This document shows, piece by piece, positions 6,411 through 61,756 of a stretch of DNA of 64,000 nucleotides. The notes below the pieces were generated by a model. The model was not told the DNA's origin and made no database searches. It saw only the letters and a list, made by a program, of their open reading frames with translations. Numbering within the stretch: position 1 is the first letter of the stretch; each line of letters starts with the position of its first letter. The stretch is from Candidatus Moraniibacteriota bacterium (GTDB lineage: Bacteria; Patescibacteriota; Minisyncoccia; Moranbacterales; UBA1568). Location: positions 41,280-105,279 of the forward strand of contig JAAXXG010000001.1 of the NCBI GenBank assembly GCA_013334575.1, read 5' to 3'. The position numbers and the translations under genes were made by a program.

Positions 6411-6518
6411 GAGAATGCTTCCGGGACGGGCGCAGAAACCGAGACGCCGCGGGAGCGAATCTCCCGGTCGATGTGGCGAGGTGGAAAGGTGAAATATGTT
6501 TTTCATAATTCAAATCCT

Positions 6519-7124
6519 ATGATGAAAATCTTGAAGAGTCTCGGGCTCATCGGGGCGGTCGTCGCGGTCGCGGGCGGCGCCACCTACGCGTACTTCAGCG
6601 ACACGGAGACGTCGTCGGGGAATACCATCGCCGCTGGAACGCTCGACCTGCAAATGAGCGGAGAAGGGACGGTGCCGTTCAGCGTGACGGACGCGTATCC
6701 GGGGATGCCGGCAGTGAAACGGCTTGTCCATGTGAAGAACGCGGGGTCGATCAATGGCCATCTGCAATTCACTGGCGCGACCGTCTCAAATGATGAAAAT
6801 GGTTTGAAGGAACCGGAAAGTTCAGACGGCGATAGCACGGACGGTGCGAGTGGAGGTGAGCTTTGTGCGAACCTCGAAGTGCAGGTCTCTTTCGTGGGTG
6901 GAGCATCTGATGTGGTGCTCTATCCGTGGGGATCGCTTGCGGCGCTCAATCCGACCGGAGATGCTCTGATGCCGGCGGCAGCCGAGCGGGATCTGAAGGT
7001 GGAGTTCCGCGTACCGGGAACGGTTGGAAATACGATTCAGAGTGATATTTGCGGGATCAATTACGGTCTCAAACTCGTCCAGGATGTGAATCAGGACGGA
7101 ACCGCCGATGAGGACGGACATTGA
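6519..7124 (+). CDS. TasA/camelysin-like secreted protein with SipW-cognate class signal peptide
   Basis: MMKILKSLGLIGAVVAVAGGATYAYFSDTETSSGNTIAAGTLDL aligns with the B. subtilis TasA N-terminus (GGGTWAAFND...ASGTLDLS). The downstream PG..K....V.N.GS region is also TasA-like. Confidence 0.7.
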   Translation: MMKILKSLGLIGAVVAVAGGATYAYFSDTETSSGNTIAAGTLDLQMSGEGTVPFSVTDAYPGMPAVKRLVHVKNAGSINGHLQFTGATVSNDENGLKEPESSDGDSTDGASGGELCANLEVQVSFVGGASDVVLYPWGSLAALNPTGDALMPAAAERDLKVEFRVPGTVGNTIQSDICGINYGLKLVQDVNQDGTADEDGH

Positions 7125-7245
7125 TCGGTAGGCTTGGTGTGCTCCCGGGGCCGATAGGAGCCCCGGGAGCGGGGTGACGGTAGACTACCGTTTGACCGTG
7201 CGACGGTAACGGGAGCATGACGGATAATCCGTGTCGACGAACGAT

Positions 7246-7947
7246 ATGATGAGGATACTGAAGAGTCTGTTCCTCATTTCGGCGGTCGTCGCGGTGGTAG
7301 GAGGGGCGACATACGCGTATTTCAGTGATACCGAAACGAGCGAAGGCAATACGGTGACGGCGGGAACCCTCGACCTCAAGGTTGGCGGCAAAGACGATCC
7401 GCTTGTCGAGAAGATCTCGGTGGGCGATATATATCCCGGAAGCGTCGTTACCAAGACGTGGAAGGTGGAGAATGCCGGGTCGGTTCCCGGCAAGGTGAAG
7501 GTGAAAATCAGGAACATAGCCGATAACGACAACGGCTGCGAGGAGCCCGAATCTCCGGGTGAGATCGCGGAATACGGCTTGGCGACCTGCGGTGCGGGCG
7601 AAGGGGAACTTTCAAGTTATCTGCGCACGCGCGTGTTTCAGAGCCATGTGAACTCGAACAATCCGGACTGGGGCATCAACGACTATCATTCGTACAATCT
7701 CGCCGGGCGGCACCCGGGCGGTTCGCCGTACGGTGGTGTGAAGTATATCGAGAACCTGTCCATGGGCGGGCAGTTAACGCTCAATCCGGGCGAGTTCCAG
7801 GTCATCAAGCTCGATATGCGTCTCGATCCGGACGTGAAGAGTCTGAGCGACTGGGGCGGCTGGCTGACTCATGATGTGAATGACAATCTTCTTCAGGGTG
7901 ATTCGACGACCTTCGATGTCGAATTCACGCTGGAACAGGTACACTGA
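7246..7947 (+). CDS. TasA/camelysin-like secreted protein paralog with SipW-cognate signal peptide
   Basis: MMRILKSLFLISAVVAVVGGATYAYFSDTETSEGNTVTAGTLDLKVGG. Tandem paralog of 6519..7124. Confidence 0.7.
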   Translation: MMRILKSLFLISAVVAVVGGATYAYFSDTETSEGNTVTAGTLDLKVGGKDDPLVEKISVGDIYPGSVVTKTWKVENAGSVPGKVKVKIRNIADNDNGCEEPESPGEIAEYGLATCGAGEGELSSYLRTRVFQSHVNSNNPDWGINDYHSYNLAGRHPGGSPYGGVKYIENLSMGGQLTLNPGEFQVIKLDMRLDPDVKSLSDWGGWLTHDVNDNLLQGDSTTFDVEFTLEQVH

Positions 7948-8039: not shown

Positions 8040-8693
8040 ATGAAACGGTTTCTCTCCATCGTGAACGGACTGGTCATGACGCTCCTCGTTTTGGTAGCGC
8101 TTCTTTCGCTTTCCTCGGCGTTCTCGGTGGGCGGGGTGCGGACCTTCTCGGTGTTGTCCGGGTCGATGGAGCCGACCATCCATACCGGAAGCGTCATCGT
8201 GACCGTACCGGCTTCGTCGTATGCAGTCGGAGACATCGTGACGCGCCGAACGGAGAACGCTTCCGTGACCGTGACGCACCGCATCGCCGAGGCATCGGAG
8301 AAGGGTGAAACGACGATGTTTCGTACGAAGGGCGATGCGAACGACATCGCGGACAGCGAGACGTTTCCGGAGGCGGATATTCTCGGCAGGGTACGCTTCT
8401 CGATCCCGTGGCTCGGCTATGTCGCGAGTTTCGCACGGACACGCGAGGGCTTCCTTCTCTTGGTCATCATCCCGGCGGTCATCGTGGTCTACGAGGAACT
8501 GCGGAAGCTGAAGGACGAGGTCGTGCGGCTTTGGCGGAAACGGCGGGAACGGAAGACCCTGTCGCGGGTCCGTATCGACGACGGGCCGAAGCCGGACCGA
8601 CCGGTCGCTCGTCCTGTTTCCGTGCCGGAAGGCAATATCGGCGAGATGCAATTCGGAGGACGGGAAGACGTGCCGAGGAAAAAGATCGTATGA
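8040..8693 (+). CDS. sipW: Signal peptidase I, SipW (archaeal/ER Sec11-type)
   Basis: N-terminal TM, then the SGSMEPT catalytic-Ser motif, a His in TVTHRIAEA, and KGDANDIADSE (GDxN box). A C-terminal TM is followed by a basic tail. Confidence 0.75.
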   Translation: MKRFLSIVNGLVMTLLVLVALLSLSSAFSVGGVRTFSVLSGSMEPTIHTGSVIVTVPASSYAVGDIVTRRTENASVTVTHRIAEASEKGETTMFRTKGDANDIADSETFPEADILGRVRFSIPWLGYVASFARTREGFLLLVIIPAVIVVYEELRKLKDEVVRLWRKRRERKTLSRVRIDDGPKPDRPVARPVSVPEGNIGEMQFGGREDVPRKKIV

Positions 8694-9739
8694 TGCTCAC
8701 GCTTCACACTGTGCGAAATTCGAAACAGGCTCTCCGGAACGGAGCGTTCCGGGCGGCGTTCGTTTCGCTGCTTGCAGTCGCAACGGGACTGTCGGGTGGC
8801 ATGTCGGGAACGAATGCCTTCTTTTCGGATACCGAGAGCGTGACCGGAAACTCCGTAGAGGCCGGTGTCTGGATTCCGACGCTCCACGCGTCGGTGTCGC
8901 CTGCGTCGCCGAACGGGCAGTATGACGCGACTCTCTACAAGACGCGTCCGTGCGTCACGCTTTCGTATGACGGTCTCTCGTCCGGGACCGCTACCATATG
9001 GTATGAATTTTCGGACGACGGAGATCCTCGGGACGGCGGGACGGTCTACGGCGGGGCCTGTATCGAGGTTCCCGACGGGGATCCGGTTCCGTTCCAGGCT
9101 GTCGCGGTGAACGTCGCGAATCCGGACTGGAGGAGCTCGGTCTTCTCGCGGGTGTTCAGGGTGGATACGGAATGTCCGGAGATCACGCTTGAGGACCCGG
9201 ATAATGGCGATACCGTTTCGGGAACCGTGAAGCTGCGCGGCACGCTTTCCGACAAGCATCCGCATCACTACTGGCTGGTCGTCGTAAGGAAATCGAACGG
9301 GGAACAGGTGGCGGGCCCGGGTGTCGTGAACGATTCGGATAGCTTTTCGGATAAGATTCTCTATGACTGGGATACGACGAAGGTCGTCGACGGGGACTAT
9401 GTCGTCAAGTTCGAGGCGCGCGACGCGGCCGGGAACAAGTGCGAACCGGGCAAGTCGGTCGATTGGAACACCGTTACCGTTCGAAATGCCGTTCCTGTCA
9501 CGGAAGCGGGAAATATGGACGCGAATCCCGGAGACGTGACGGTTTCCACGTCCGTCTCATCTCCGTCCGCATTGACGGTCGACGGAACCGGGCTGGATGG
9601 TGTTTCTGCTACGGGTGATCCGGGAACGGCGGAGGTTGTCGTGATAGAATCGGACCAGCGGCAGGTCAGCGGCGCGGAAACGGAAGAAATACGATCCGAA
9701 GGAACGGATGTTTCCGGATCGGGTGGATCCGGAGCATGA
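8690..9739 (+). CDS. Large secreted protein with SipW-cognate signal peptide (TasA-like N-terminus plus extra beta-rich domains)
   Basis: MMLTLHTV...AVATGLSGGMSGTNAFFSDTESVTGNSVEAG carries the SipW-type motif. ATGA overlap with the sipW stop. Ser/Gly/Asp-rich C-terminus. Confidence 0.6.
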   Translation: MMLTLHTVRNSKQALRNGAFRAAFVSLLAVATGLSGGMSGTNAFFSDTESVTGNSVEAGVWIPTLHASVSPASPNGQYDATLYKTRPCVTLSYDGLSSGTATIWYEFSDDGDPRDGGTVYGGACIEVPDGDPVPFQAVAVNVANPDWRSSVFSRVFRVDTECPEITLEDPDNGDTVSGTVKLRGTLSDKHPHHYWLVVVRKSNGEQVAGPGVVNDSDSFSDKILYDWDTTKVVDGDYVVKFEARDAAGNKCEPGKSVDWNTVTVRNAVPVTEAGNMDANPGDVTVSTSVSSPSALTVDGTGLDGVSATGDPGTAEVVVIESDQRQVSGAETEEIRSEGTDVSGSGGSGA

Positions 9740-9749
9740 ACGAAAAGAT

Positions 9750-10418
9750 ATGGCGTCAATGAAACGGACATTCGCACTTGCCTTCTTCACGGTCATGCTT
9801 ATGATTCCGAGCGCCGCGGTACAGGCGCGCGACGAACTCGATATCGATCCGGATCGGGGAAGGTTGTTCAACGAGCGGGATATGGCGCCGGGCGAGTCCG
9901 TATCGGCGGAAGTATCGGCTCGGAACCGTACGAAGGACAAGGCGGACCTTTTCCTTTCGGTCGACGGGCTCCAGGGCGAACGCCTGGCGAGAGTGATGCA
10001 GGTCGCTGTCATTGACCGAACGAACGGTGAGTATCTTGTCGGCGGTGAGAATGACGGCATGACGCTTGCGGATCTGAATGGTGCGCACCAGGTCTTTTTG
10101 GAACGGCTCGGGAAAAACCGTTCCGGATCGTACGAGATAAGGCTGACGTTCGATCCGAATGCCGGGAACCGGTATCAGGGAACGAAGACGAAGTTCGACT
10201 TATCTTTCAGACTTACGTCCTCGGTCGCGAAACCGGATTCCAATCCGCCGTGCCGGACCGACCGATGTCGCGATCGATGGGAACATGAGCGCGGGCGGGA
10301 CGACGACCGTAGCAATGACCGCGATTGGCGTGGTCGCTTTGTGGAAAGGTACCATCGTTTTTCGGATTCCATGTCTTGGTTTTTCGGCCGCGTATCGCAG
10401 GCTCTATCGCGAAGATAG
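9750..10418 (+). CDS. Secreted protein (Sec signal peptide, AVQA cleavage site) with a highly charged Arg/Asp-rich C-terminal tail
   Basis: MASMKRTFALAFFTVMLMIPSAAVQA. The C-terminus reads CRTDRCRDRWEHERGRDDDRSNDRDWRGRF. It is the last gene of the sipW cluster. Confidence 0.4.
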   Translation: MASMKRTFALAFFTVMLMIPSAAVQARDELDIDPDRGRLFNERDMAPGESVSAEVSARNRTKDKADLFLSVDGLQGERLARVMQVAVIDRTNGEYLVGGENDGMTLADLNGAHQVFLERLGKNRSGSYEIRLTFDPNAGNRYQGTKTKFDLSFRLTSSVAKPDSNPPCRTDRCRDRWEHERGRDDDRSNDRDWRGRFVERYHRFSDSMSWFFGRVSQALSRR

Positions 10419-11970: not shown

Positions 11971-14900
11971 ATGACGCTCAGTTTGACCCGAAGGTTCCGC
12001 AGGTGGTTCCGCGTCTTCGACGCGGTCGTGATCCTGGCGATGACTTTCCAGCCGGTCGCCCCGGCGGTGATTTTCTCGCAGGAGGCTCCTGCAGCCGAAG
12101 AGAAGTCGGTTGTGGAGACACCGAAGGATACCGAAGAAGTGAAACCGGAAGAGGAGGCGAAGCAGGAAGTGAAAGCGCCGGAAGCGCCTGTGACCGAGGA
12201 GTCGGAAGTCGCTGCGGCGGTCGAACCGACCGTTTCCGTTCCGGAAGTCGCCGTTAAGACGGAGACTTTGGAAACGGTGACGGATCCGACCGATGGCCAG
12301 TCGGCCGTTTCGGTTGAGGACGGAGCGGATATGCCGACCGAGCCGACCGTGGAAGCGGCCGGAGCGGCGTTCGATGAGCGTGCTCCCGAATGGAAGAAGA
12401 ACGACGACGGCTCGCGGACGATCCGCGTCGTCGTGGGAGAGGAATATGCATATCCGGATTCGGATCTTTCGATCCGGTTCACGAAGATCGATGCCGACAA
12501 GAACGCCGGAAACCCGCGGGAGATTACCGTGAAGTCACTGAAGCTTTCCGGGCGATTGGCGGACTCTCTCCGCTCGGTGTCGGATGACGCCTACGAAATC
12601 ACGTCCAGCATGGAGGATGGCACGTTCGAATATGCGCTTTCCATGCCTATCGGGAAGGGGATCGATGAGGGATCGCTTTCCGCTGCCTATGCGGACGATG
12701 AGCATGCGCTCGAAGACGAACGCATTAAGGAAGTCGATGACGAAGACTTGACGTTTGATGACGACCGTGGGATCGCGACCGTATCGGGAATGGATCATTT
12801 CACGGTTTGGTTTCTGCGGCATGATCCGGATCCCGTGAAAGTGAACATCTGTCACGCGACCGGATCCGAGACGAATCCGTTCACGAAGAACGAGGTGAGC
12901 ATCAACTCGGTCTCGAAGTGTCGCGATGCGGCGGGGCACGATGATCATGGCGGCGATATCATTCCTCCGTACTCGTATGGATCGTGCTCGTTCCGCGGGC
13001 AGAACTGGGATACCGACGGACGGGCCATCTGGAACAACGGCTGCAAGAGGCCGCTCGGATCCGCGACGCTTTTCGTTCGTAAGGAGGTTGTCAATGACGA
13101 CGGAGGAACGCTAGTCGCTCGTGATTTCGGTCTGCGTGTGCTGGATGCTCGCGGGAACGACGTGACGGGGAGTCCTGTCGCAGGCTCGGAATCGGGTATC
13201 GCGTTCGCGCTGCCGGCCGGTTCTTACTGGATCGGAGAGCGTTCCGTCACCGGGTATGTCCTGAAGGGATTCGAAGGGGATTGCGGGGTGGATGGTTCGG
13301 TGACGCTGGTCGCCGGAGAGTCGCGAAGCTGCACCGTCGTGAACGATGATATCGCTCCGCGTCTTACCGTGGTGAAACACGTGATAAACGACAACGACGG
13401 TACGCTTTCGGCAGGAAACTTCACCATGACCGTTTCCGGTACGGGCGTTTCCGAACCGTTCTTCGCTGGAAGCGAAACGGGAACGACGGTGACGCTCCGA
13501 CCCGGATCATACGAAGTCGGAGAGATCGGCGATGCGGGATATTCCATGACCGCGACCGAGTCATGCTCGGGAACGATCGCGCTCGGCGAGCATCGTACCT
13601 GTACGTTGACAAACGACGACAAGGCTCCGGTGAACATCGTCGCGTGGAAGGTCGTCTGTGACAACGAATCCGATTTGCCGAACCGCGACGGGGGCGCGGA
13701 TATATCAGCAACCACGGCTACGGACTACGTGGCGAGTCATCCGTCCTGCCGACTCGTGTCCGGATGGGGCTTCGAATGGGGAAACGAATGGGTAAGCAAT
13801 CCCGGTGACGATTTCGTCGGACCTGCCGGAAACGGTTGGTTGACATTCGGTCCGACCGGAGAGGATGGCTCCGCATCGGTTGCCATCGAGGATTTCTCAG
13901 AACGCGGAATCTGGCTCCGTGAGATCCTGCAGGAAGGGTATCTGCCGTTCACCTATACGCTCAACGGAAATACGAACGCGAACGATGTGTCCGCGGAATT
14001 TTTCTGCGACACCGACGTCGAGAACTACGATAATCAGGAGTGGATTCCGAATCCGGTTCGCGGCGCTACGTATCATTGCGTCGCGTGGAATGTCGGATTG
14101 GGATCGATTCACGGACGCAAGTGGGAGGACCTCGACGGAAACGGAACGATGGACGAAGTCGAGAATCTTCTGGGGGGATGGACGGTTTTTCTGGATAAAG
14201 ACGGAGACGGTGACCTTGATAAGGGAGAAGAATCGACCGAGACCGCTTCCGAGGGCGATCATTTCGGTTGGTACCGGTTCGGGAATCTGCTTCCGGGTAC
14301 CTACTCGGTCTGCGAGGTTCCGCGGGAGGGTTGGGTACAAAGCTATCCCGGTACCGTTTCCGAACCCGCATGTCATTCGGTCACGGTTCCCGATTCCGGT
14401 AATCGCGAGTCGGCTGGAAATTCGGTTGACGGTTCAGCGTACGACTTCGGAAACGGAAGACTCGGAACGCTCTCGATAGAGAAATTCAACGATGCGACGT
14501 CGCCGAAGAAGCCTGGCGAGACCGTGAAATATACGCTGCGCATATCCGCGTCCGAGGGGCGCGTTCTCGGTGTCAGCGTGACCGACCTTCCGCCGTCGGT
14601 GGCGGCATATGTCGACGGTTCCTGGTCGGCCGAGTCCAGCGAGGGCTCGTCGCATATCGGCGCGCTCGCGCTTGATCACGAGTACCACTCGCCGGGCGTA
14701 TGGGCTCTCGGCGATATGCTTCCGGGCGAGGTGATCACCCTTTCCTACGACGCGCTGGTGGCGGATGGTACCGATGCGGGTCAATATCCGGACCTCGCGT
14801 ACGCGCAGGGTGTCGGTCGGAGCGGAAATCTGTATGCCATGGCCGGTATCGGTGGAAACATCGATGATTCGCGCTATGTCGGAACGGCGATCGCCGTAGC

Positions 14901-16101
14901 GGATACGGATACGGCGGATCCCGCGAAGGTGACGACCGACCATCACGAGAAGGAACAGAAGGTCGTGAAGGGGCGGGTGCTCGGCGCGACGCTTCCGGAA
15001 ACGGGATCACCCTCGTTCATCCTGGTCCTCGCTCTCCTGCTTGTCGGAATCGGCGGCGCGACGCTTGCGATCGGAGGATCTGTAAGGAGCGGGAAACTCC
15101 GCGCGTACCTGCGGCGGACGGTTCGCCGATGGGCCATCGTGCCGGTAGTTGTCTTGACTGGAGCGTCCTGGGCATGGGGAACGGTCGATGCGGGATCCAT
15201 ACCGGACCTCTATATCCGGGCGGAAAGTCCTGAGTCGGCCGCGAACGGATCCTTCCTGATGGACTATGTGACGCTCGATACGGACAAGCAGGGAGGTATC
15301 GACGTTTCGTGTCAGGTGAAGAAGCCGGGGGCGTCCGGGTTCGCGACGTTCCAGACTGCCGTGATCGACAACGAACAAGGGGGAAATTCCGGACAGTGCG
15401 AAGTGGGTCCGTCGGAGCTTGCCGACGACGGAACGTATGTCTTCCGCGTGAAGGCGGAATCTGGAAGCGAAGAAGCGTTGAGCGCGGAATATTCCGTGGC
15501 ATACGATTCGACGCTGCCGGGTAGGCCGAAATCGATCGACAAGAGCTATGTGTCCAGCTGTATTAACCGCGTGAAGCTCCGTACCGCGGACGACGGTCAG
15601 ACGACACGCGTGGAAGTGTATCGTTCGACGAGTGAGGATTTCATGGCGGACGCCTCGACCCTGGTTCATACGGCTGTCGTCGGTCCGAATGCGACGTACG
15701 AGTATGACGATGCGCGTCCGTCCGCCATCTGCGGAAACAGGACGTATTACGCGGTACGCGCGTTCGACGATGCGGGGAACGCGTCTCCGGTACGTGAGGA
15801 GGATATGACCGAGACGAACAAGACGACCGCATACGAGGATGTGACGACGGAAGGCTCGGTAACGCTGAAGCCGGGCGCCGGTACGACGGTTTCCGAAGGA
15901 ACCGGTTCTGGCGAGACGACGGTGACCGGAGAGGTTGCCGGCGAGCAGTCCGGCAGCGGGGAGGGAACGGTCGAAGGAGCGGAGACGACCGCAGGCGGTT
16001 TCCCGCGGTGGGGATGGATACTTGTCGCGCTCGCGGCGTATGCCGGGTACCGGTGGTATGCTCTCCGGAAAGAACGGAAGGCGAGAATGCCGAAGATCTA
16101 G
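11971..16101 (+). CDS. 1,376-aa cell-surface adhesin-like protein with prealbumin/Cna-B/SdrD-B-like and DUF11-like repeats, an internal LPETG sorting signal and a second C-terminal membrane anchor
   Basis: N-terminal signal/anchor. Repeated V.NDD.AP beta-sandwich modules. SdrD-B-like DLDGNGTMDE...DKDGDGDLD. LPETG at nt 14992-15006, followed by a hydrophobic stretch and RSGKLRAYLRRTVRRW, then about 360 more aa ending in a TM plus KERKARMPKI. Confidence 0.7.
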   Translation: MTLSLTRRFRRWFRVFDAVVILAMTFQPVAPAVIFSQEAPAAEEKSVVETPKDTEEVKPEEEAKQEVKAPEAPVTEESEVAAAVEPTVSVPEVAVKTETLETVTDPTDGQSAVSVEDGADMPTEPTVEAAGAAFDERAPEWKKNDDGSRTIRVVVGEEYAYPDSDLSIRFTKIDADKNAGNPREITVKSLKLSGRLADSLRSVSDDAYEITSSMEDGTFEYALSMPIGKGIDEGSLSAAYADDEHALEDERIKEVDDEDLTFDDDRGIATVSGMDHFTVWFLRHDPDPVKVNICHATGSETNPFTKNEVSINSVSKCRDAAGHDDHGGDIIPPYSYGSCSFRGQNWDTDGRAIWNNGCKRPLGSATLFVRKEVVNDDGGTLVARDFGLRVLDARGNDVTGSPVAGSESGIAFALPAGSYWIGERSVTGYVLKGFEGDCGVDGSVTLVAGESRSCTVVNDDIAPRLTVVKHVINDNDGTLSAGNFTMTVSGTGVSEPFFAGSETGTTVTLRPGSYEVGEIGDAGYSMTATESCSGTIALGEHRTCTLTNDDKAPVNIVAWKVVCDNESDLPNRDGGADISATTATDYVASHPSCRLVSGWGFEWGNEWVSNPGDDFVGPAGNGWLTFGPTGEDGSASVAIEDFSERGIWLREILQEGYLPFTYTLNGNTNANDVSAEFFCDTDVENYDNQEWIPNPVRGATYHCVAWNVGLGSIHGRKWEDLDGNGTMDEVENLLGGWTVFLDKDGDGDLDKGEESTETASEGDHFGWYRFGNLLPGTYSVCEVPREGWVQSYPGTVSEPACHSVTVPDSGNRESAGNSVDGSAYDFGNGRLGTLSIEKFNDATSPKKPGETVKYTLRISASEGRVLGVSVTDLPPSVAAYVDGSWSAESSEGSSHIGALALDHEYHSPGVWALGDMLPGEVITLSYDALVADGTDAGQYPDLAYAQGVGRSGNLYAMAGIGGNIDDSRYVGTAIAVADTDTADPAKVTTDHHEKEQKVVKGRVLGATLPETGSPSFILVLALLLVGIGGATLAIGGSVRSGKLRAYLRRTVRRWAIVPVVVLTGASWAWGTVDAGSIPDLYIRAESPESAANGSFLMDYVTLDTDKQGGIDVSCQVKKPGASGFATFQTAVIDNEQGGNSGQCEVGPSELADDGTYVFRVKAESGSEEALSAEYSVAYDSTLPGRPKSIDKSYVSSCINRVKLRTADDGQTTRVEVYRSTSEDFMADASTLVHTAVVGPNATYEYDDARPSAICGNRTYYAVRAFDDAGNASPVREEDMTETNKTTAYEDVTTEGSVTLKPGAGTTVSEGTGSGETTVTGEVAGEQSGSGEGTVEGAETTAGGFPRWGWILVALAAYAGYRWYALRKERKARMPKI

Positions 16102-16208: not shown

Positions 16209-16282
16209 GGACAATTAGCTCAGTTGGTTAGAGCACTGCATTCACATTGCAGGGGTCGCTGGTTCGAGTCCAGCATTGTCCA
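16209..16282 (+). tRNA. tRNA-Val (anticodon CAC)
   Basis: 74-nt cloverleaf: acceptor GGACAAT/ATTGTCC, D-stem GCTC/GAGC, anticodon stem CTGCA/TGCAG with loop TTCACAT, T-stem GCTGG/CCAGC with loop TTCGAGT. Confidence 0.9.
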
Positions 16283-16392
16283 CAGCGATAAGACTTACGA
16301 CGTACAGCATACAACTTACGACACCGAATCGTATTCAGTCCGATTTTTCATACGGTTGTGCGTTGTCAGTTGTCGGTTGTCGGTTTCGGTAT

Positions 16393-17718
16393 ATGCTCGA
16401 TATACAGTTCATACGCGATCACCGGGACGAGATTGTCCGTGCGGCCAAGGGAAAGCGGCTCGATTTCGATGTCGACGCGCTGTTTGCGGCGGACCGCGAC
16501 CGCATCGAGGCCGCGCAGGCGCTCGAGGCCGCTCAGGCCCAGAAGAACGGGCTCAATCAGAAGATCGCCTCCGCGGGAAGCGACGGGGAACGTGCGGCCG
16601 CCATCGCCGAGGGAAAGGCGATCAAGGAGCGGATCGAATCGCTCGAGCCGGCGGCGCGCGAGACGAAGGAACGCTTCGACGCCCTCATGGCGCAGGTGCC
16701 GAATGTCGTGGCACCGGACACGCCGGCGGGGGAGAGCGACGAGGACAACGTCGAGGTCGCGAGAAAAGGGGATATCCGTGAGTTTCCGTTCGCGCCGAAG
16801 GATCATATCGCGCTTGGTGCGTCGCTCGGACTGTTCGATCTTGAGCGTGGAACGAAGGTGGCCGGATACCGGGGGTACTACCTGACCGGCGACGGTGCGA
16901 TGCTCGCGATGGGGCTCATGTCCTTTGCGCTCTCGAAGATGGCGTCCAAGGGATATGTTCCGATGATTCCGCCGACCTTGGTGAAGGGATTCCCGCTTTT
17001 CGGAAGCGGCTACTTCAAGGGGCTCGAGTACGACGGCGAAGTCGACGAGATCTATCAGGTCGCTTCCGGTGATCGCGATGCCGACGGGAGCGAATCCAAG
17101 GAACGGAAGTTTCTGGTCGGGACGGCGGAACCTTCGCTGCTCGCGTTCCATTCCGGAGAGACGATCGCGGCGGACCGGCTCCCGATCCGCTATGCCGGGT
17201 TCAGCCAGTGCTATCGGAGCGAGATCGGTTCGTACGGCAAGGATACCAAGGGTCTCTACCGGGTCCACGAGTTCATGAAGGTCGAACAGGTGGTTCTCGC
17301 GCCGGCGGATCCCGCGTTGGCCGATACGCTTCAGGAGGAGATGCTCGGTATCACAGAAGAGATCCTGACCGACCTCGGTCTTCCGATCCGTCGGATCCGC
17401 ATCTGTGCGGGTGACATGGGAACCGGGAAGTACAAGGCGTTCGATGTCGAGGCGTGGATGCCGGGTCTGGGGCGCTGGGGTGAGCTCGGAAGCGCGTCGA
17501 ACTTTACCGATTGGCAGGCGCGTCGCCTCGAGGTGCGGTATGCCGATCCGGATACCGGCAGAAAGATCCCGGTCTATATGCTCAATAACACCGCGCTTAC
17601 GTCCGTCCGACCGCTGATCGCGATTCTCGAGAACTTCCAGGAGTCGGATGGGTCGGTCGTCGTTCCGGAAGTCCTTCGCCCCTTTGTCGGTAAGGATCGT
17701 CTGATGCCGAACGTCTAG
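16393..17718 (+). CDS. serS: Seryl-tRNA synthetase
   Basis: MLDIQFIRDHRDEIV... N-terminal coiled-coil and class II aaRS core motifs. Length about 441 aa. Confidence 0.9.
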   Translation: MLDIQFIRDHRDEIVRAAKGKRLDFDVDALFAADRDRIEAAQALEAAQAQKNGLNQKIASAGSDGERAAAIAEGKAIKERIESLEPAARETKERFDALMAQVPNVVAPDTPAGESDEDNVEVARKGDIREFPFAPKDHIALGASLGLFDLERGTKVAGYRGYYLTGDGAMLAMGLMSFALSKMASKGYVPMIPPTLVKGFPLFGSGYFKGLEYDGEVDEIYQVASGDRDADGSESKERKFLVGTAEPSLLAFHSGETIAADRLPIRYAGFSQCYRSEIGSYGKDTKGLYRVHEFMKVEQVVLAPADPALADTLQEEMLGITEEILTDLGLPIRRIRICAGDMGTGKYKAFDVEAWMPGLGRWGELGSASNFTDWQARRLEVRYADPDTGRKIPVYMLNNTALTSVRPLIAILENFQESDGSVVVPEVLRPFVGKDRLMPNV

Positions 17719-26403: not shown

Positions 26404-28071
26404 GTGAAACGGAACTGGCATCTTCCGGTACTCGTCGTCCTGCTGATCCTCTGCGGAGGGTTCGTGGATGCAGGTGCCGTGGCACGGGCACAGTATGTCG
26501 TCCGCAAGGGCGACGTCATGTCCCGGCTGTTCGGAGCCGGCTACCGCAAGGTGGCGGCCGCGAGCGGCATCAAGGATCCGAACAGGATCAAGGTAGGGCA
26601 GAAGCTTACCATTCCCGACGGAGTCCGTTTCCGAAAGGAAACAGCCTCGTCCGGGAAATATGGCTTCGCGCTCAAGACGATCAACGGTGACTTCCGGTGG
26701 AAGAGCGGAAGGGATAAGTTGTCCGCGTTCCCGTCGAAAGGGTCATCTGCGATCAGGCTGCTCATGCCCGATCTCTCGGCAGTCGAGGCGAAAGTTCTCT
26801 GGGATCGGCTCTGCGCCGTCCCGACGAACGGCCGTTTCGAGAAAGGGGAGAACGGAGTCTTGTCCGCCGTGCTGGATGACAGCACCAAGACGAGACTCGA
26901 CCTGTCGAACGGCATGATGATCGGTGGTCGGAAAGCGATCCGTTTCACCGGAAATCTGAAGCTGGCGAAAGGTGATGCGTTGAAGACGGATCACCTGAGT
27001 GCGATCCGTGTCGGTGACCGATGGCTCATCCGTCCCGAGGTCTGTGGCAACCTGTTGCCCGGCCGCGGCGGCGAACGTCCTCCGGTCGTCGAGCCGCCCG
27101 TCGTACCATCAGTTCCGCCTGCCGCTCCGCCGTCTATCTCGGTGTTTCCGAACAAAGAGGGGTGTAACGCGGAATATGAACTCATCGTCGGTGCCGGTGT
27201 CTGGCAGAACGATCTTGCGAACGGGAGTTTCCAGTTCGGCGAAGGTATGATCTCCTGCCAGGTCGGCAACGGCTATTCCGCCGGTGTCGGATTCTACGGC
27301 TACCATGGCGAGGGTGAAAACGGCGAGGGCTACAGCTGGGAAGAGGGCGGAATAGGACCGCAGGTCGGCGTCAAGAGGAACTTCCTCAAGTCGCATCTCG
27401 ACGAGTTCGGTCAGGAGGTATTGTATCCGGCCGGATGGCAGCTTAAGTTCCGCTATCTGCCAAACGACTATGTCGAGGGCGGGAGCGACAGCTACCATGT
27501 CAAGCAGTGGGGGCATAAGTACGGCCTCTACGGCGAATACTGGCAGCGCGAGTCGGAAAACAGGATCGTCGGCGTGACCGGCGAGTACTGGTGGTACGAC
27601 CCGACGCGGTTCACATCATCCTGGTGTGGTGACAGCCCTCAGGACCGGGGAACGTGGAAGCTTGGCGTATACGACCAGCGACGCCTGAACGACCGTTGGC
27701 AGCTCCGGCTCGGCGCGAGCTATCTTCACCAGAACTGGGACAAGGTGAACTTCTTACAGCTCACTCCCGAGTTCAGGCTTGATGAGACGCTCATGCTGAC
27801 GCCGTGGGTGTCCATACCGCTTATCAACGACGTGAACCATGCCGGTCCGACGAAGGGCTTTACGGTCCGCCTCGAGGTTTGGGGCAAGTTCCGAAAGGAC
27901 TTCGAGAAGCGTTCCGAGCAGTCGGTCGTCGAGCTTGGCAAAGTCGGGGAATCAACCGACGAGAAGCCGGCAGATCCGGAAACGGTCGTCGCGGCTCCTG
28001 AAAAGGAAGCCGAAAGTCCGGCGGAATCGGTCGAAACGCCTGAAGCCGTCGATATCTACCAGGGTCAGTAA
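26404..28071 (+). CDS. LysM domain surface protein with aromatic-rich beta-strand C-terminal domain and acidic tail
   Basis: GTG start. Signal peptide. LysM region YVVRKGDVMSRLF...IKVGQKLTIP. The C-terminal half has alternating W/Y/F. Acidic low-complexity end. Confidence 0.55.
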   Translation: MKRNWHLPVLVVLLILCGGFVDAGAVARAQYVVRKGDVMSRLFGAGYRKVAAASGIKDPNRIKVGQKLTIPDGVRFRKETASSGKYGFALKTINGDFRWKSGRDKLSAFPSKGSSAIRLLMPDLSAVEAKVLWDRLCAVPTNGRFEKGENGVLSAVLDDSTKTRLDLSNGMMIGGRKAIRFTGNLKLAKGDALKTDHLSAIRVGDRWLIRPEVCGNLLPGRGGERPPVVEPPVVPSVPPAAPPSISVFPNKEGCNAEYELIVGAGVWQNDLANGSFQFGEGMISCQVGNGYSAGVGFYGYHGEGENGEGYSWEEGGIGPQVGVKRNFLKSHLDEFGQEVLYPAGWQLKFRYLPNDYVEGGSDSYHVKQWGHKYGLYGEYWQRESENRIVGVTGEYWWYDPTRFTSSWCGDSPQDRGTWKLGVYDQRRLNDRWQLRLGASYLHQNWDKVNFLQLTPEFRLDETLMLTPWVSIPLINDVNHAGPTKGFTVRLEVWGKFRKDFEKRSEQSVVELGKVGESTDEKPADPETVVAAPEKEAESPAESVETPEAVDIYQGQ

Positions 28072-38687: not shown

Positions 38688-39380
38688 ATGAGTATGCGTT
38701 TCGATTTCGTCTCCATCTTTCCCGAGTGCTTCGATTCCTATCTCGGGGTATCCATGATGAACCGGGCACGCCAGGACGGGCTCGTCTCGTTCCGTTTCGC
38801 CGATCCGCGCAAGTACGCTACCGATAAACATCATACGGTCGATGATTCTCCGTACGGCGGCGGGGCGGGCATGGTAATGAAGCCGGAGCCGCTCTTCGCC
38901 TGTGTCGAGGACCTGCTCTCGGAAGGGGAGGCGTCGCGCGATCGGACCAGGATCATTCTCTTTTCGGCGAAAGGAAGACCCTTCGTACAGGACGATGCCA
39001 GACGGCTCGTAGGGTCTTACGATCGACTCATCCTTATAGCCGGACGCTACGAGGGGGTGGACGAACGCGTCCACGAACATCTTGTCGACGAGGAGCTTTC
39101 GATCGGCGAATACGTACTCACCGGCGGAGAACTTCCGGCGATGGTCGTCGCCGACGCGGTTACCCGACTCATTCCCGGCGTACTCGGCAACGCCGAGAGC
39201 GCCGAGACCGAATCGCATTCCGAAGAGGGTGTCCTCGAACATCCGCAGTATACGAAGCCGGAGGAATTCAGAGGATGGCGGGTGCCGGATGTCCTGCTCT
39301 CCGGCCATCACGAAGAGATTCGGAAATGGCGCGAGCGGATGTCGTCACGCCGTGCCGGAACCGATATCGAAACGGTATGA
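38688..39380 (+). CDS. trmD: tRNA (guanine37-N1)-methyltransferase
   Basis: [13 protein letters not shown]...[17 protein letters not shown]. Alternative starts at 38670 and 38694. Confidence 0.85.
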
Positions 39381-40525
39381 GCGTCCGACGACTGAGCGGA
39401 AGATCGGTCGCCAAGACGGATCGGACGACGTTCGATCGGCCGCTGCTTATGGCAGTCGCGCTACTTCTGGGTATCGGACTGGTGATGGTCGCAAGTGCCG
39501 GGGTGGCATACGGAAACCTCCGGTTCGAGGACGGAGCGTTTTTCCTGAAACGACAGTTTTTCGGAGTGATAGTCGGTGCCGTCGCCCTGTTCGCGTTCCA
39601 GCGAATCCCATACCGATTCTGGAAACGGGTGGCCGTCCCCATGTTCTTCGCCTCGATTGGGCTTCTTATTCTCGTCCTCATTCCCGGGGTCGGAACGTCC
39701 GCCTATGGCGCGGCCCGCTGGATCCAGCTCGGACCCATCCCTCCGTTCCAACCGTCGGAAATCATGAAGCTCTCCCTTATCGCCTATCTGGCGGCATGGT
39801 TTTCCGGCCGCGACCGCGGCGACATTTCCGATTTCTTCGAACACGTCATCCCGTTCCTGCTCATCCTCGGATCGGTCGCGTTTCTTATCCTGAAACAGCC
39901 GGATACCGGGACGCTCGCACTCATGTTCCTCATCGCGCTCTCGATGTTCTTCACGGCTGGCGGCCGACTTTCTCATATCGGGATCATGGTCGGATCGGGC
40001 CTGGCAGGTCTTGCCGTCCTTATCCTGATTGCCCCCTACCGAATGAAGCGCCTGCTCGTCTTTCTCAATCCCGACCACGATCCGACCGGAGCCGGATATC
40101 AGGTCCGGCAAGCGCTTATCGCGCTCGGTTCCGGGGGCCTTTTCGGAGTAGGTCTCGGGCACAGCAGGCAGAAGTTCCTGTATCTCCCGGAGCCGATGAC
40201 CGATTCGATCTTCGCGGTGCTCGGCGAGGAACTCGGCTTCATCGGCTGCATGGCGGTCATCTCGCTCTTCGTCTTTCTCGCGTATCGCGGATATCGCATC
40301 GCCAGGAACGCGCCGGACGAATTCGGCCGGCTCCTCTCGGTTGGCATCGTCTCATGGATCGTCTTTCAGGCATTCGTCAACATTTTCGCGATCAGCGGAC
40401 TGATGCCGCTTACCGGGGTTCCGCTCCCATTCATCAGTTACGGAGGAACTTCGCTGGCGGCGCTTCTCGGAGCGGTCGGCATATTGCTGAACGTCTCGAA
40501 AAACGCTACGATAAAGGGGAAATAG
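39377..40525 (+). CDS. ftsW: SEDS-family peptidoglycan glycosyltransferase FtsW/RodA
   Basis: 10 TM helices and SEDS motifs (e.g. [27 protein letters not shown]). ATGA overlap with trmD. Confidence 0.8.
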
Positions 40526-40540
40526 AACCGAACGTCCCAT

Positions 40541-41683
40541 ATGCCGAAGCATGAAGCACACCGGAACGAGCTGCGTATCGTTCTTACGGGAGGCCTTACC
40601 GGAGGACATCTTTTCCCGTTGCTCGCCGTCGCGAAGGCCGTCGCGAATCGGTCATCCGTACCGGTCACGTTCCTCTACCTCGGTCCTCCCGGACGTTTCG
40701 GATGCGATGCCGTTCGGAACGAGAACATTCCCGTCCGACCCATCGTAACCGGGAAGCTTCGTCGGTACTTCTCTTTCCGGAACGTCGTAGACCCCTTTAA
40801 GGCCGTTATCGGTTTCGTACAGTCGATTTGGTACCTGTACGCGTTCATGCCGGATGTCGTTTTCGCGAAAGGAGGCGCCGTCTCGGTGCCCGTCTGTCTT
40901 GCGGCCTGGGCACTTCGGATTCCGTTCATGATTCACGATTCGGATGCGGTTCCCGGGGCCGCCAACAGGATGCTTGCCGGATTCGCTTCCAGGATCGCCG
41001 TCGCGTATCCGTCGGCGGCGGGCGAGTTCCCCGTCGAAAAGACCGCCGTCACGGGAAATCCCGTCAGGCCTGAACTGTCGGGCGGGATCGCGTCACGGGC
41101 AGATTCATACTTCGGCTTCGCCTCCGATAAACCGCTCGTACTCGTGCTCGGTGGCAGTCTGGGGGCGAAATCCCTCAACGCGGCGGTGGCCCGCATGCTA
41201 CCCGATGTCATACGCGAGACACAGATCCTACACCAGACCGGGGAGGCGGGATACGCGGAAACGGTCTCTATCGCCGGAGAATACGGCATCAAGGCGGGCC
41301 GGGAAGGATACGTCGTCACCCCGTTTCTTTCCGCTTCGGAACTCGCAGACGCGCTCGTCAGGGCGGATATCGTTATTTCCCGAGCCGGAGCCTCGACCGT
41401 TTCCGAGCTCGCCGCGTTCGGAAAACCCTCCATACTTGTTCCGCTTCCCACCGCCGCGAACGATGAACAGAGAATGAATGCCTATCAGGTGGCGGGCATC
41501 GGCGGGGCTGTCGTCCTCGAGGAATCGAACCTGGGCGAACATATTCTCTCGGCGAAGGTCGATGCGCTTCTTCGTGACGGGAATCTCCGTGAAGCGATGT
41601 CGGAAGCCATCAGGGCCTTTCATAATCCCGCGGCCGCAGATATGCTCGCCGACGGCATCATCGGACTTTCCGCAAACGCATGA
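40541..41683 (+). CDS. murG: UDP-GlcNAc:undecaprenyl-PP-MurNAc-pentapeptide GlcNAc transferase
   Basis: LTGGLTGGHLFPLLAVA G-loop and a GT28 C-terminal domain. Confidence 0.85.
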   Translation: MPKHEAHRNELRIVLTGGLTGGHLFPLLAVAKAVANRSSVPVTFLYLGPPGRFGCDAVRNENIPVRPIVTGKLRRYFSFRNVVDPFKAVIGFVQSIWYLYAFMPDVVFAKGGAVSVPVCLAAWALRIPFMIHDSDAVPGAANRMLAGFASRIAVAYPSAAGEFPVEKTAVTGNPVRPELSGGIASRADSYFGFASDKPLVLVLGGSLGAKSLNAAVARMLPDVIRETQILHQTGEAGYAETVSIAGEYGIKAGREGYVVTPFLSASELADALVRADIVISRAGASTVSELAAFGKPSILVPLPTAANDEQRMNAYQVAGIGGAVVLEESNLGEHILSAKVDALLRDGNLREAMSEAIRAFHNPAAADMLADGIIGLSANA

Positions 41684-43059
41684 AGATCCATATCGTCGGA
41701 ATAGAAGGAGCCGGGACGTCCGCATTGGCAACCCTGTACGCACGACGGGGTCATGCGGTTACCGGCTCGGATGACGGGGACCGGTTTTATGCGTCCGTAC
41801 TCGAACACGAAAACATTCCCGTTTCGGTCGGATTCGACGCCCAAAACGTTCCCGAAGACGCCGAGCTGGTCGTTTATTCGACGGCGTTCGCGGAGAATCC
41901 CGAAACGGCCAGGGCACGAGACCTCGGTATACGGACCCTGTCGTACCCGGAGGCGATCGGAGAGCTTACCCGCGAATACATGAGCCTGCTCGTCTGCGGA
42001 ACACACGGAAAGACGACTACCTCGGCCATGCTCGCGGAGACATTGCGATCGGCCGGAAAGGATCCGTCCGCCGTCATCGGGAGCCGCGTTCGGGAATGGG
42101 ACGGAAACTCCCTGAGCGGATCCGGCAACCTGTTTGTCCTCGAAGCGGACGAGTATCAGGATAAACTTTCGCTCTATCATCCGTTCGCCGTCATCCTGAC
42201 CAGTGTCGACTGGGATCATCCGGATTTCTTTCCGGACGAGACGTCCTACCGGAAGACGTTTGAACGGTTCGTTTCCAGGATACCGGCACACGGAGTGTTG
42301 GTCTCGTCGTCCGATTCGGCCTCTGTCGTCGCCGTCGCCGAATCGGCGCACTGCCGCCGAATCACCTACGGATTCGACGGAAACGCGGATTACCGTATCG
42401 TTGACCGACATGCGGTCACGGCCGCGGAATCGGGTCCGGAAGGCATACGGCAGCGTTTCTCGATCGAAACCGACGCGGGACCGCTCGGAGTCTACGAGCT
42501 TCGTCTGCCCGGAAAACACAACGCCCAGAATGCCGCCGCCGTCATAGCGCTCGCATCGTATCTCGGGGTCGATCCCGAGGCCGTCCGCTCGGCGCTTGCC
42601 TCGTTCATCGGGACGGCCAGACGAAGCCAGTATGTGGGGGAGTTCAACGGCATCCCGATATACGACGACTACGCGCATCACCCCGAAGAGCTTCGCGCGA
42701 CCATTTCCGCCTTCCGCGACGCGTATCCCGAACACCGACTCGTCGCCGTATTCCACCCGCATACCTTCACCCGTACGGCCGCGCTTCTCTCCGAATTCGC
42801 GCAGGCCTTCGACAACGCCTCGCGAGTGTTGGTTCTCGACATCTACGGTTCGGCCCGCGAGAAACAGGGAGGGGTTTCCTCGGCGGATCTCGTCGCGGGC
42901 ATCAACCGCTACGCGCCAGGAAAGGCGGAGCATATCCCGACGATCCCGGAAGCCGTCTCCCGTCTTCGCGATACCCTTGAAGACGGGGATCTTCTGGTCA
43001 CCTTCGGCGCCGGAGATGTCTGGCACGTAGCCGAGGGGGTAGTCGGAGCGGAAACGTGA
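41680..43059 (+). CDS. murC: UDP-N-acetylmuramate--L-alanine ligase
   Basis: MKIHIVGIEGAGTSALA...GTHGKTTTSAML. ATGA overlap with murG. Confidence 0.85.
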   Translation: MKIHIVGIEGAGTSALATLYARRGHAVTGSDDGDRFYASVLEHENIPVSVGFDAQNVPEDAELVVYSTAFAENPETARARDLGIRTLSYPEAIGELTREYMSLLVCGTHGKTTTSAMLAETLRSAGKDPSAVIGSRVREWDGNSLSGSGNLFVLEADEYQDKLSLYHPFAVILTSVDWDHPDFFPDETSYRKTFERFVSRIPAHGVLVSSSDSASVVAVAESAHCRRITYGFDGNADYRIVDRHAVTAAESGPEGIRQRFSIETDAGPLGVYELRLPGKHNAQNAAAVIALASYLGVDPEAVRSALASFIGTARRSQYVGEFNGIPIYDDYAHHPEELRATISAFRDAYPEHRLVAVFHPHTFTRTAALLSEFAQAFDNASRVLVLDIYGSAREKQGGVSSADLVAGINRYAPGKAEHIPTIPEAVSRLRDTLEDGDLLVTFGAGDVWHVAEGVVGAET

Positions 43060-43239
43060 GCATCGTGCAGGATGATTATGAATGAAGTATTCGAAAATCT
43101 GATAGTGCCGAAACGGATTCGAGAAAGGGATGCTGAAAATACTATCGATTCCTTGGATGTTTCGCCCGTCCGAAGATCTGATATCAAACAGCGCCATGAA
43201 AGCGGCTTGAGTCGGGAATAGTGGACTCGACGGGAAGTC

Positions 43240-44775: not shown

Positions 44776-44859
44776 GGGTCTTCCGCGATTCCGACGGTTC
44801 CGTATGGTATACTGCGCAATGAAAGTCTCCTCTCGGCAGTAATCCGTCGCCGTTCGCTT

Positions 44860-52726: not shown

Positions 52727-53113
52727 ATGAAAAAGAAAATGATCGTCGCCGTACTCGGAGCGAGCGATAAGCCGGCGCGGTATTCGAACAAGGCGGTCCG
52801 GGAACTTGTCGCCCACGGGTACGACGTCATACCGATCCATCCTTCGCTTTCAGCCGTAGAAGGAATTCCGGTCGTTCGTGGAATGAACGGAATCGACGGC
52901 GAAGTCGACGCGCTTTCGGTGTATGTGAGGCCGGATATCAGCGGAAACCTTGCGGACGAGATCATCCGACTTGCACCGAAGACGGCCATATTCAATCCCG
53001 GAACGGAGAATCCGGATCTCGAAGGACGCCTTTCCGAGGCGGGTATCCGTGTGGCCCATGCCTGCACCGTTACGACGCTCCGGACCGGCACGTTCGCCTC
53101 ACTCATACGGTAA
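52727..53113 (+). CDS. CoA-binding domain protein (YccU-like)
   Basis: MKKKMIVAVLGASDKPARYSNKAVRELVAHGYDVIPIHP. Confidence 0.6.
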   Translation: MKKKMIVAVLGASDKPARYSNKAVRELVAHGYDVIPIHPSLSAVEGIPVVRGMNGIDGEVDALSVYVRPDISGNLADEIIRLAPKTAIFNPGTENPDLEGRLSEAGIRVAHACTVTTLRTGTFASLIR

Positions 53114-53123
53114 CGATCCTCCT

Positions 53124-61732: not shown

Positions 61733-61756
61733 AAGGTTCGTTCTGGAGAGGAAGGA

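Follow-up and report, generated by a model that had tools for sequence, protein, structure and literature searches.

An internal sortase signal in a Moraniibacteriota adhesin: natural fusion of two genes of an adhesin, fibronectin-III protein and sortase cassette

Organization of the fused ORF

A 64,000-nucleotide (nt) stretch of the genome of a Candidatus Moraniibacteriota bacterium, which is ultra-small and uncultured (contig JAAXXG010000001.1; the whole stretch is hereafter called the window) contains an open reading frame (ORF) for a giant adhesin, designated P0010, in which a sortase sorting signal lies in the interior of the polypeptide. Sortase signals are defined and searched for at the C-terminus. 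The original prediction had recognized this internal LPETG signal, and proposed either that two genes were fused, by evolution or by a sequencing frameshift, or that the product is a two-anchor polyprotein. The features of the ORF and of the surrounding DNA are listed in Table 1.

The protein begins with an export signal (Kyte-Doolittle hydropathy of 1.9 over 19 amino acids (aa)), followed by the adhesin passenger. The prealbumin-like, SdrD-B-like and DUF11-like domains proposed for this part were all found by the profile searches, as SpaA_2 (E=1e-12), SdrD_B (E=3.4e-8) and a weak, sub-cutoff match to the DUF11/CLIPPER repeat model of NCBIfam (TIGR01451) at aa 841–888. SpaA_2 is among the predicted isopeptide-bond stalk domains listed in PMC12617251. 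A Cys/His-rich stretch of the adhesin at 12800–13150 (~aa 280–395), which includes NICHATGSETNPF, AAGHDDHGGDIIPPYSYGSCSFRGQNWD and NNGCKRP, gave no match in the Pfam or NCBIfam scans, and may be the ligand-binding head.

The LPETG motif lies at nt 14992–15006 (aa 1008), exactly as originally predicted, and was the sole LPxTG-like motif with a hydrophobic segment in the window when ORFs longer than 150 aa were scanned in all six frames. The hydrophobic segment and the positively charged stop-transfer sequence described behind it were also confirmed. S1013–S1037 is an uncharged segment of 25 aa and the hydrophobic maximum of the protein (2.68 over 19 aa), and V1038–W1054 has seven Arg/Lys and no Asp/Glu in 17 aa. 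The motif, the hydrophobic segment and the positive residues make up a tripartite sorting signal, but this signal is not at the extreme C-terminus, since 322 aa extend beyond the basic loop. The TIGR01167 and PF00746 (Gram_pos_anchor) models gave no match at E≤1 in the Pfam and NCBIfam scans of the whole protein. The ORF indeed runs uninterrupted for ~360 aa past the signal, to 1,376 aa in total, and the signal is 365 residues from the C-terminus. A second hydrophobic segment, A1055–A1074 (AIVPVVVLTGASWAWGTVDA), follows the basic loop, has a 13-aa hydropathy of 1.87 as compared with a maximum of 1.2 in the passenger, and ends V-D-A/G. The C-terminus consists of WGWILVALAAYAGYRWYAL (1.51 over 13 aa) and the basic tail RKERKARMPKI, with no LPxTG nearby.

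An AlphaFold2 model of the junction (aa 830–1376) was built with 30 fused sequences. In order, it contains a beta-sandwich, the VLGATLPETG segment, which is disordered (predicted local distance difference test (pLDDT) <50), two helices at aa 1015–1039 (model residues 186–210) and aa 1042–1070, two fibronectin-III (Fn3) domains, a disordered stalk of 63 aa, and a terminal helix at aa 1347–1372 (518–543). A topology with three helices is predicted from hydropathy, charge and this model, in which the terminal helix and its basic tail correspond to the LPXTG-free C-terminal anchor of the original prediction.

Table 1. Features of the fused ORF and of the neighboring DNA. Positions are those of the window.
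Feature	Positions	Strand	Remarks
Whole fused ORF	11971..16101	+	1,376 aa plus stop; from the ORF list; P0010 is its own 50%-cluster representative
N-terminal export signal	11971..12081	+	~aa 1-37; basic n-region TRRFRRWFR, then hydrophobic AVVILAMTFQPVAPAVIFS; end approximate
SpaA_2 prealbumin-like stalk domain	13354..13581	+	aa 462-537; Pfam PF19403, E=1e-12; 2 stretches, one positioned
SdrD B-like domain (SdrD_B)	14116..14391	+	aa 716-807; Pfam PF17210, E=3.4e-8
Pre-anchor beta-sandwich, DUF11/CLIPPER-like	14458..14943	+	aa 830-991; AlphaFold2 strands with high pLDDT, model residues 1-162
VLGATLPETG	14977..15006	+	aa 1003-1012; VLGA at 14977-14988, LPETG at 14992-15006 (aa 1008-1012)
Transmembrane segment 1 (TM1), hydrophobic domain of the sorting signal	15007..15081	+	aa 1013-1037; predicted outside-to-inside
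Cytoplasmic basic loop (predicted)	15082..15132	+	aa 1038-1054; 7 Arg/Lys, 0 acidic residues
Predicted internal signal peptide, h- and c-region	15133..15192	+	aa 1055-1074; ends V-D-A
Tandem Fn3 module	15193..15807	+	aa 1075-1279; four conserved Cys
Disordered Gly/Thr/Glu-rich stalk	15808..16008	+	aa 1280-1346; pLDDT <50 at model residues 454-516; holds TVEGAE
C-terminal membrane anchor and basic tail	16009..16098	+	aa 1347-1365 and RKERKARMPKI (aa 1366-1376); no LPxTG
tRNA-Val (CAC)	16209-16283		starts 108 nt past the end of the adhesin ORF; contig L001 terminates within it
Seryl-tRNA synthetase (SerRS) ORF	16276-17718		mechanically called TTG start overlaps tRNA-Val
Peptidoglycan genes	39275-45870 and 52950-54272		FtsW/RodA, MurG, Mur ligase (MurC), MurB, YkuD L,D-transpeptidase with Big_5
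LysM protein	26404-28071
SecA	46971-49619
Camelysin/TasA-like proteins with SipW-cognate signal peptides	6471-7124, 7231-7947	+
SipW/archaeal-type signal peptidase I	8040-8693	+	TIGR02228, 114.5 bits
Third SipW-cognate protein	8690-9739	+
Homologue of the N-terminal domain of the ~700-aa fused proteins	9708-10418	+

Evidence for a natural fusion

A spurious indel that removed a stop codon between two genes would also generate such an ORF. A single-base error could have this effect, given the 8-nt overlap of the two genes in distant homologues (described below), and the source of the window is metagenome-type. However, the identical 1,376-aa protein was found on the Logan contig L001 (run SRR11449211), which came from a different assembler, although the same source reads may underlie both. 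The junction has no homopolymer run of 5 nt or longer, and its alternative frames contain no stop/restart arrangement and no start and stop from which two genes could be reconstituted. The same in-frame junction, with LPETG kept and the frame open, is present in the closest relatives, the Moraniibacteriota loci L012 (76% identity in the module), L013 (72%) and P0045/L051. In L012, L013 and P0045, the part from TM1 through the loop to the second signal has diverged and includes a one-codon indel, while the flanking domains are highly conserved. In addition, the fused form accounts for about two thirds of the family, with some members known from several independent samples, and the fused proteins P0008 and P0002 were found again on contigs from separate samples.

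By these observations, an assembly or sequencing error is effectively refuted, and the ORF is supported as a natural in-frame evolutionary fusion of two neighboring genes. The comparison with an independent assembly, which the original prediction had suggested, gave an identical protein. The suggested comparison with orthologues had a divided outcome: split two-gene homologues do exist, but they are distant, and no stop or frameshift interrupts the three closest relatives. The distant split homologues thus confirm a two-gene origin rather than an error in the window. From the original alternatives, the sequencing frameshift falls, while a true gene fusion that most plausibly acts as a polyprotein stands.

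Fused and split forms of the family

A first search with aa 960–1376 as the query found eight homologues with 33–38% identity. Four were proteins of 704–724 aa with an LP[AL]TG motif, a transmembrane (TM) segment, basic residues, a second hydrophobic segment, the module and a C-terminal TM segment, and the other four were stand-alone proteins of 318–319 aa with an ordinary N-terminal signal peptide. The module core (alignment A1) was then made into a profile and searched against 1.84 billion cluster representatives. The profile gave 2,326 matches, 445 of them at E≤1e-30 (counted as 50%-identity clusters), and P0010 matched it with E=2.4e-79 over aa 1078–1279. The best matches of the profile search and the first eight homologues were combined into a set of 157 proteins, among which 98 had LPxTG upstream in the same polypeptide, 56 were stand-alone and three had degenerate motifs. 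The distance from LPxTG to the module in the 98 fused proteins was 47–79 aa (median 59). Their motifs were LPATG (58), LPSTG (19), LPGTG (10), LPKTG (5), LPLTG (2), LPETG (2), LPYTG (1) and LPDTG (1). A C-terminal TM segment without LPxTG was present in 148 of the 157.

At the DNA level, the module was located in 39 species-representative genomes, with ~25 fused loci and about a dozen split ones; the automatic fused count includes two false calls on LA.TG inside a signal peptide. The record titles name mostly Patescibacteria (Moraniibacteriota, Saccharibacteria, WWE3, Daviesbacteria, Dojkabacteria, Levybacteria, Gottesmanbacteria and WS6). The titles of about a dozen others read Gammaproteobacteria, Pseudomonadales or Thermodesulfobacteriota, and these were taken to be mislabelled bins of candidate phyla radiation (CPR) bacteria.

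The split homologues are the more distant ones, mostly of the Microgenomatia type. On a rough neighbor-joining tree of 156 modules, the fused/split state required at least 21 changes, as compared with 45 with shuffled labels, and the two states have clearly interconverted repeatedly. In the split loci, the upstream gene ends with LPxTG, a TM segment and RRKYx before the stop (e.g., RRKYA), and it overlaps the module gene by 8 nt (ATGNNTAA). This overlap was scored directly in 10 of 14 loci and was found by inspection in 13 of 14, three more being visible downstream of an earlier in-frame start that the script had picked. The Arg/Lys codons of the basic tail supply the Shine-Dalgarno sequence of the downstream gene (AGGAG), so that, with the 8-nt overlap, a single-base indel fuses or separates the genes. 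Such repeated fusion and fission, a "Rosetta stone" relationship, suggests that the Fn3 protein works together with the sortase substrate.

The same anatomy was found across the 99 fused members. The median values are 23 aa for TM1 and, for the loop, 8 aa with four Lys/Arg and no Asp/Glu, and a second uncharged stretch (h-region) comes next. An [AVS]xA sequence closes the h-region at the same aligned position in 92% of the fused and 94% of the stand-alone proteins, as compared with 61% and 73% in shuffled controls, and with such a high baseline the argument for a signal peptidase site rests mainly on positional concordance. The site lies at −2 to +2 relative to the module, and its residue preferences are alike in the two forms. 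In the window protein, TVDA/GS (aa 1074/1075) aligns with AKA/N, AKA/D and AKA/G of L012, L013 and P0045. The signal-peptide-like stretch noted in the original prediction is homologous to the genuine N-terminal signal peptides of the stand-alone proteins. Its n-region LRRTVRRWAIV (15112–15138) also resembles TRRFRRWFRVF (11986–12012) at the N-terminus of P0010, each with two Arg pairs and then a Trp. SipW was considered as the enzyme for the internal signal and set aside, as the AxFSDxE motif of SipW-cognate proteins is absent there.

The basic loop doubles as the stop-transfer tail of the sorting signal and the n-region of the signal peptide behind it. Its codons include AAGGAG at 15084–15089, at the place of the downstream gene's Shine-Dalgarno sequence in the split relatives, with no canonical in-frame start codon after it, which is likely, from the sequence, a relic of the ribosome-binding site of a once-separate downstream gene.

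The Fn3 module

The module alone was predicted by AlphaFold2 as a tandem Fn3 pair with a pLDDT of 88.8, and Foldseek against the PDB retrieved generic tandem-Fn3 pairs, including V. cholerae RbmA. The fibronectin/Ig-like module of the original prediction is accordingly a tandem Fn3. It had no match in Pfam, NCBIfam or PDB sequence searches, and its relatives are labelled only "hypothetical protein" in the source databases. The conserved motifs are F[RK]TADDG.T..VEVYRS and YYAVRAFD.AGN.S. Among 156 representatives, the cysteines C1114, C1143, C1197 and C1254 are conserved in 98–100%, and K1191 (15541–15543), in the first strand of the second Fn3 domain (Fn3-2; ...SIDK/SY), is Lys in 92%. The context of this Lys is Y/I-x-K-D/S, not YPKN, and the module has no LPxTG. 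An invariant pilin-like nucleophile was rejected as its role, for a conservation of only 92% and the absence of the pilin motif.

A three-gene cassette

The stand-alone module protein has ~320 aa, in which two Fn3 domains and then a disordered stalk lie between a signal peptide and a C-terminal TM helix. In every stand-alone context examined, a gene for a large LPxTG-TM protein was directly upstream and a sortase gene directly downstream, and in the fused contexts examined, the sortase gene directly followed the fused gene. A sortase was just downstream of the module at about 36 of the 39 genome loci. These arrangements define a conserved, CPR-wide cassette of three genes, encoding a CLIPPER-like LPxTG adhesin, the ~320-aa tandem-Fn3 TM protein and a dedicated sortase, with only one LPxTG substrate per cassette.

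The adhesin length before the anchor varies among the substrates from ~350 to more than 2,700 aa, and the one passenger domain common to all is the pre-anchor CLIPPER/DUF11-like domain. A hidden Markov model (HMM) of this domain matched 98 of the 99 fused proteins, including the window protein, and, in the split loci, 14 of the 16 LPxTG genes that precede the module gene (E=1e-39 to 1e-59). A [VIL]LG[A/E] motif is found family-wide before LPxTG, with VLG within 14 aa of it in 94 of the 99 fused proteins, and V, L, G, L, P, T and G are invariant across VLGA-LPxTG in the alignment A2. The window protein has both the pre-anchor domain and the VLGA motif (GRVLGATLPETG). A similar (S/E)VLG(E/A) motif is found again in the module's disordered stalk, where 120 of 156 tails have it as compared with 10.8 expected from shuffles; its form in the Moraniibacteriota clade is VEGA(E/Q), and TVEGAE is present in the window protein (15950–15970).

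The cassette sortase has the His, Cys and Arg motifs of sortases. Its best class score was for class C, and the class D and E scores were similar.

Proposed processing and its alternatives

We consider it likely that P0010 is an in-frame fusion of the first two cassette genes acting as a polyprotein precursor that is cut into two products. The N-terminal signal would export the passenger of ~1,000 aa, TM1 would halt the transfer, and the loop with seven Arg/Lys would remain cytoplasmic. The second hydrophobic segment would then act as an internal signal peptide that re-initiates export for the Fn3 module, and the last helix (TM3) would anchor this module in the membrane. Sortase would cut LPET/G (T1011/G1012; peptide RVLGATLPETGSPS) and transfer the adhesin, for which a peptidoglycan precursor would be the simplest acceptor. 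Signal peptidase I would probably cut VDA/G (A1074/G1075), as suggested by the conservation of the site, to leave a TM hairpin of ~63 aa and a module identical in form to the stand-alone protein. The Fn3 module would stay beside the membrane-bound sortase. The fused and split forms, which would interconvert via small indels in the 8-nt ATGNNTAA overlap, would give the same two products, and would therefore be functionally equivalent.

Several points weigh against this processing. Both cleavages are predictions in every member of the family. The signal peptidase site of the window protein is less canonical than those of its relatives (Asp at −2, AWG before it), the chance baseline of [AVS]xA is high, and TM3 is only weakly hydrophobic (1.51 over 13 aa). 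For the Fn3 module, a role as a membrane-bound scaffold or tether for the adhesin or its anchoring, in concert with the sortase and the pre-anchor domain, is favored but only weakly inferred. The cassette sortase scored under every curated class cutoff, even in class C (64 bits vs 160). In the 64-kb window, no sortase was detected by an HMM built from seven cassette sortases (six-frame ORFs of at least 50 aa) or by a scan for TLxTC, and tRNA-Val and SerRS follow the fused ORF instead of the usual sortase gene. A cassette-type sortase, P0164, was found on the 2-kb contig L053 from the same run, SRR11449211, and is 63% identical to the L012 sortase overall and ~70% over the catalytic domain. The GC content at third codon positions of L053 is similar to that of the window, but the contig does not overlap the window, and the similarity of its first 90 nt is to the 3' end of the L013 locus, not to the window.

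Positions 1–105 of L053 resemble 7172–7249 and 7918–8009 of L013 (80–86% when translated), both located 3' of the L013 fused gene. The shared ~90 nt may be a repeat, or a conserved intergenic region between the module and sortase genes.

The lack of a sortase in the window, unlike in nearly all relatives, would fit a protein whose LPETG is left unprocessed as a relic of the fusion, namely one polytopic protein with three TM helices after signal removal and two ectodomains. Such a stable three-TM topology also agrees with the positive-inside rule and the AlphaFold2 helices. On the other hand, LPxTG is kept in 98 of 101 fused representatives, with VLGA invariant in the alignment A2, and the closest relatives keep the exact LPETG though the adjacent TM segment has diverged, which indicates purifying selection on the motif. 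Furthermore, the relatives L012 and L051 have a sortase nearby, two genes and 1.4 kb downstream in L012 and 0.5 kb downstream in L051. From these results, an unprocessed protein seems unlikely.

We also regard as improbable that sortase ligates the adhesin not to the wall but to the Fn3 module, through the conserved Lys or the new N-terminus, so that the adhesin would be held in the membrane via TM3. In the fused precursors, this would be an intramolecular transpeptidation excising the TM hairpin, a sortase "splice". The strict 1:1 genetic coupling of substrate and module, with their repeated fusion, is in favor of ligation, as are the 92% conservation of K1191 among the 156 representatives and the best, though weak, score of the cassette sortase for class C, the pilin-polymerising class. 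The end of the module, moreover, resembles a sorting signal (VLG motif, TM segment and basic tail) but is free of LPxTG, and would thus be retained near the sortase. However, the Lys is not invariant and is outside a YPKN-type pilin motif, the score for class C falls far short of the cutoff with classes D and E similar, and an ordinary acceptor exists, given the peptidoglycan synthesis genes. The two-product precursor therefore remains the best reading of the data.

Gene neighborhood in the window

The peptidoglycan gene set in the window (Table 1) indicates that the organism makes a wall usable by sortase. The true start of SerRS is probably the ATG at 16393. TasA/SipW-type genes like those upstream of the fused ORF also accompany the ~700-aa fused proteins in L005, L009, L019, L020 and L022. 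At the far end of the window, two ORFs longer than 1,000 aa overlap on opposite strands (58451–61732, minus; 59360–62503, plus), and the plus-strand one has no Pfam match.

Comparison with known systems

This architecture was not described in any text found by full-text literature searches for internal LPXTG, CPR sortases and a second signal peptide. Mechanistically, the nearest parallel is the N-terminus of the streptococcal IgA1/Zmp proteases, although the window protein is not a member of that family. In these proteases, the signal peptide is followed by LPXTG, two hydrophobic segments and then another signal-peptidase site; the second cleavage is 56 residues past LPXTG, and the second hydrophobic segment was proposed as a second signal peptide (PMC3518915, PMC9637739). 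The window protein shares the non-C-terminal LPXTG, the two hydrophobic segments and a candidate second signal-peptidase site, and the spacing is comparable, with 63 residues from G1012 to A1074 and a family median of ~59 from LPxTG to the module. In Zmp, however, only a short peptide precedes LPXTG, a large functional part with G5 and an M26 protease follows it, and there is no C-terminal anchor. In the fused adhesin, the large part, of 1,000 aa, lies before the motif, and behind it comes a small tandem-Fn3 protein that brings its own TM anchor; no G5 or M26 domain was found in its Pfam/NCBIfam scans. Unlike Zmp, its family also occurs in a two-gene form and has a dedicated sortase encoded alongside.

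Canonical Gram-positive substrates and fibrillar adhesins share the N-terminal signal, the SpaA_2/SdrD_B/CLIPPER-like stalk and the tripartite signal (PMC12617251), but their signal is C-terminal, whereas that of the window protein is internal and has a VLGA extension. The survey of isopeptide-domain adhesins in PMC12617251 scored sortase motifs only in the last 50 residues, and such surveys would therefore miss proteins with an internal signal.

The predicted layout of the module is also that of PamR (QHN43270.1/WP_260763282.1), an "RbmA-like pilus tether" of the Pam pilus operon of Ca. Mycosynbacter amalyticus, which also encodes the pilins PamA/B and the chaperones PamC/D. PamR is a ~33 kDa protein in which a signal peptide and an extra N-terminal strand precede two RbmA-like FnIII domains and a C-terminal TM helix (bioRxiv 10.64898/2026.03.03.709456). 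RbmA was among the Foldseek matches of the module, and the two proteins were compared by their described layouts. The neighbor of PamR is the chaperone PamD rather than a sortase, and the preprint names no LPXTG protein (bioRxiv 10.64898/2026.03.03.709456). M. amalyticus had no locus in the module genome scan, and no Mycosynbacter entry was obtained in the Saccharibacteria-weighted profile search. The role proposed for PamR, that of tethering a surface filament to the membrane, could plausibly serve as a model for the module.

Sortase-pilus operons likewise have a dedicated sortase beside the substrate and an accessory membrane protein, and the weak best score of the cassette sortase is for class C. 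They differ in that the cassette sortase is far under the cutoffs, that the module has neither LPxTG nor YPKN, and that there is one substrate. The cluster upstream of the fused ORF resembles the Bacillus TasA/SipW locus in having a SipW-type peptidase and three SipW-cognate proteins, two of them TasA/camelysin-like. A sortase, an LPxTG protein and an Fn3 anchor are all absent from the Bacillus locus, and the link between the upstream cluster and the fused adhesin is one of co-location only.

Implications for CPR bacteria

Attachment to host cells is the way of life of CPR bacteria, and the surface machinery behind it is poorly characterized. In CPR/Patescibacteria, a large part of the bacterial tree (Moraniibacteriota, Saccharibacteria, WWE3, Dojkabacteria, WS6 and others), the sorting signal of this large unannotated family usually lies in the middle of the precursor, ahead of a signal peptide that re-initiates export. 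These substrates are therefore overlooked by standard annotation and surveys. The junction logic of the family has one known precedent, and the fused adhesins are a second natural example of an internal sorting signal beside the pneumococcal IgA1 protease. If the adhesin is in fact ligated to the Fn3 module, a sortase-catalysed protein "splice" would produce a membrane-tethered adhesin in CPR bacteria. The cassette defined here is widespread, with at least 445 clusters that match the module at E≤1e-30. It combines a CLIPPER-type LPxTG adhesin with a tandem-Fn3 membrane protein and an unclassified sortase, and is a concrete, testable candidate system for the surface attachment of CPR bacteria.

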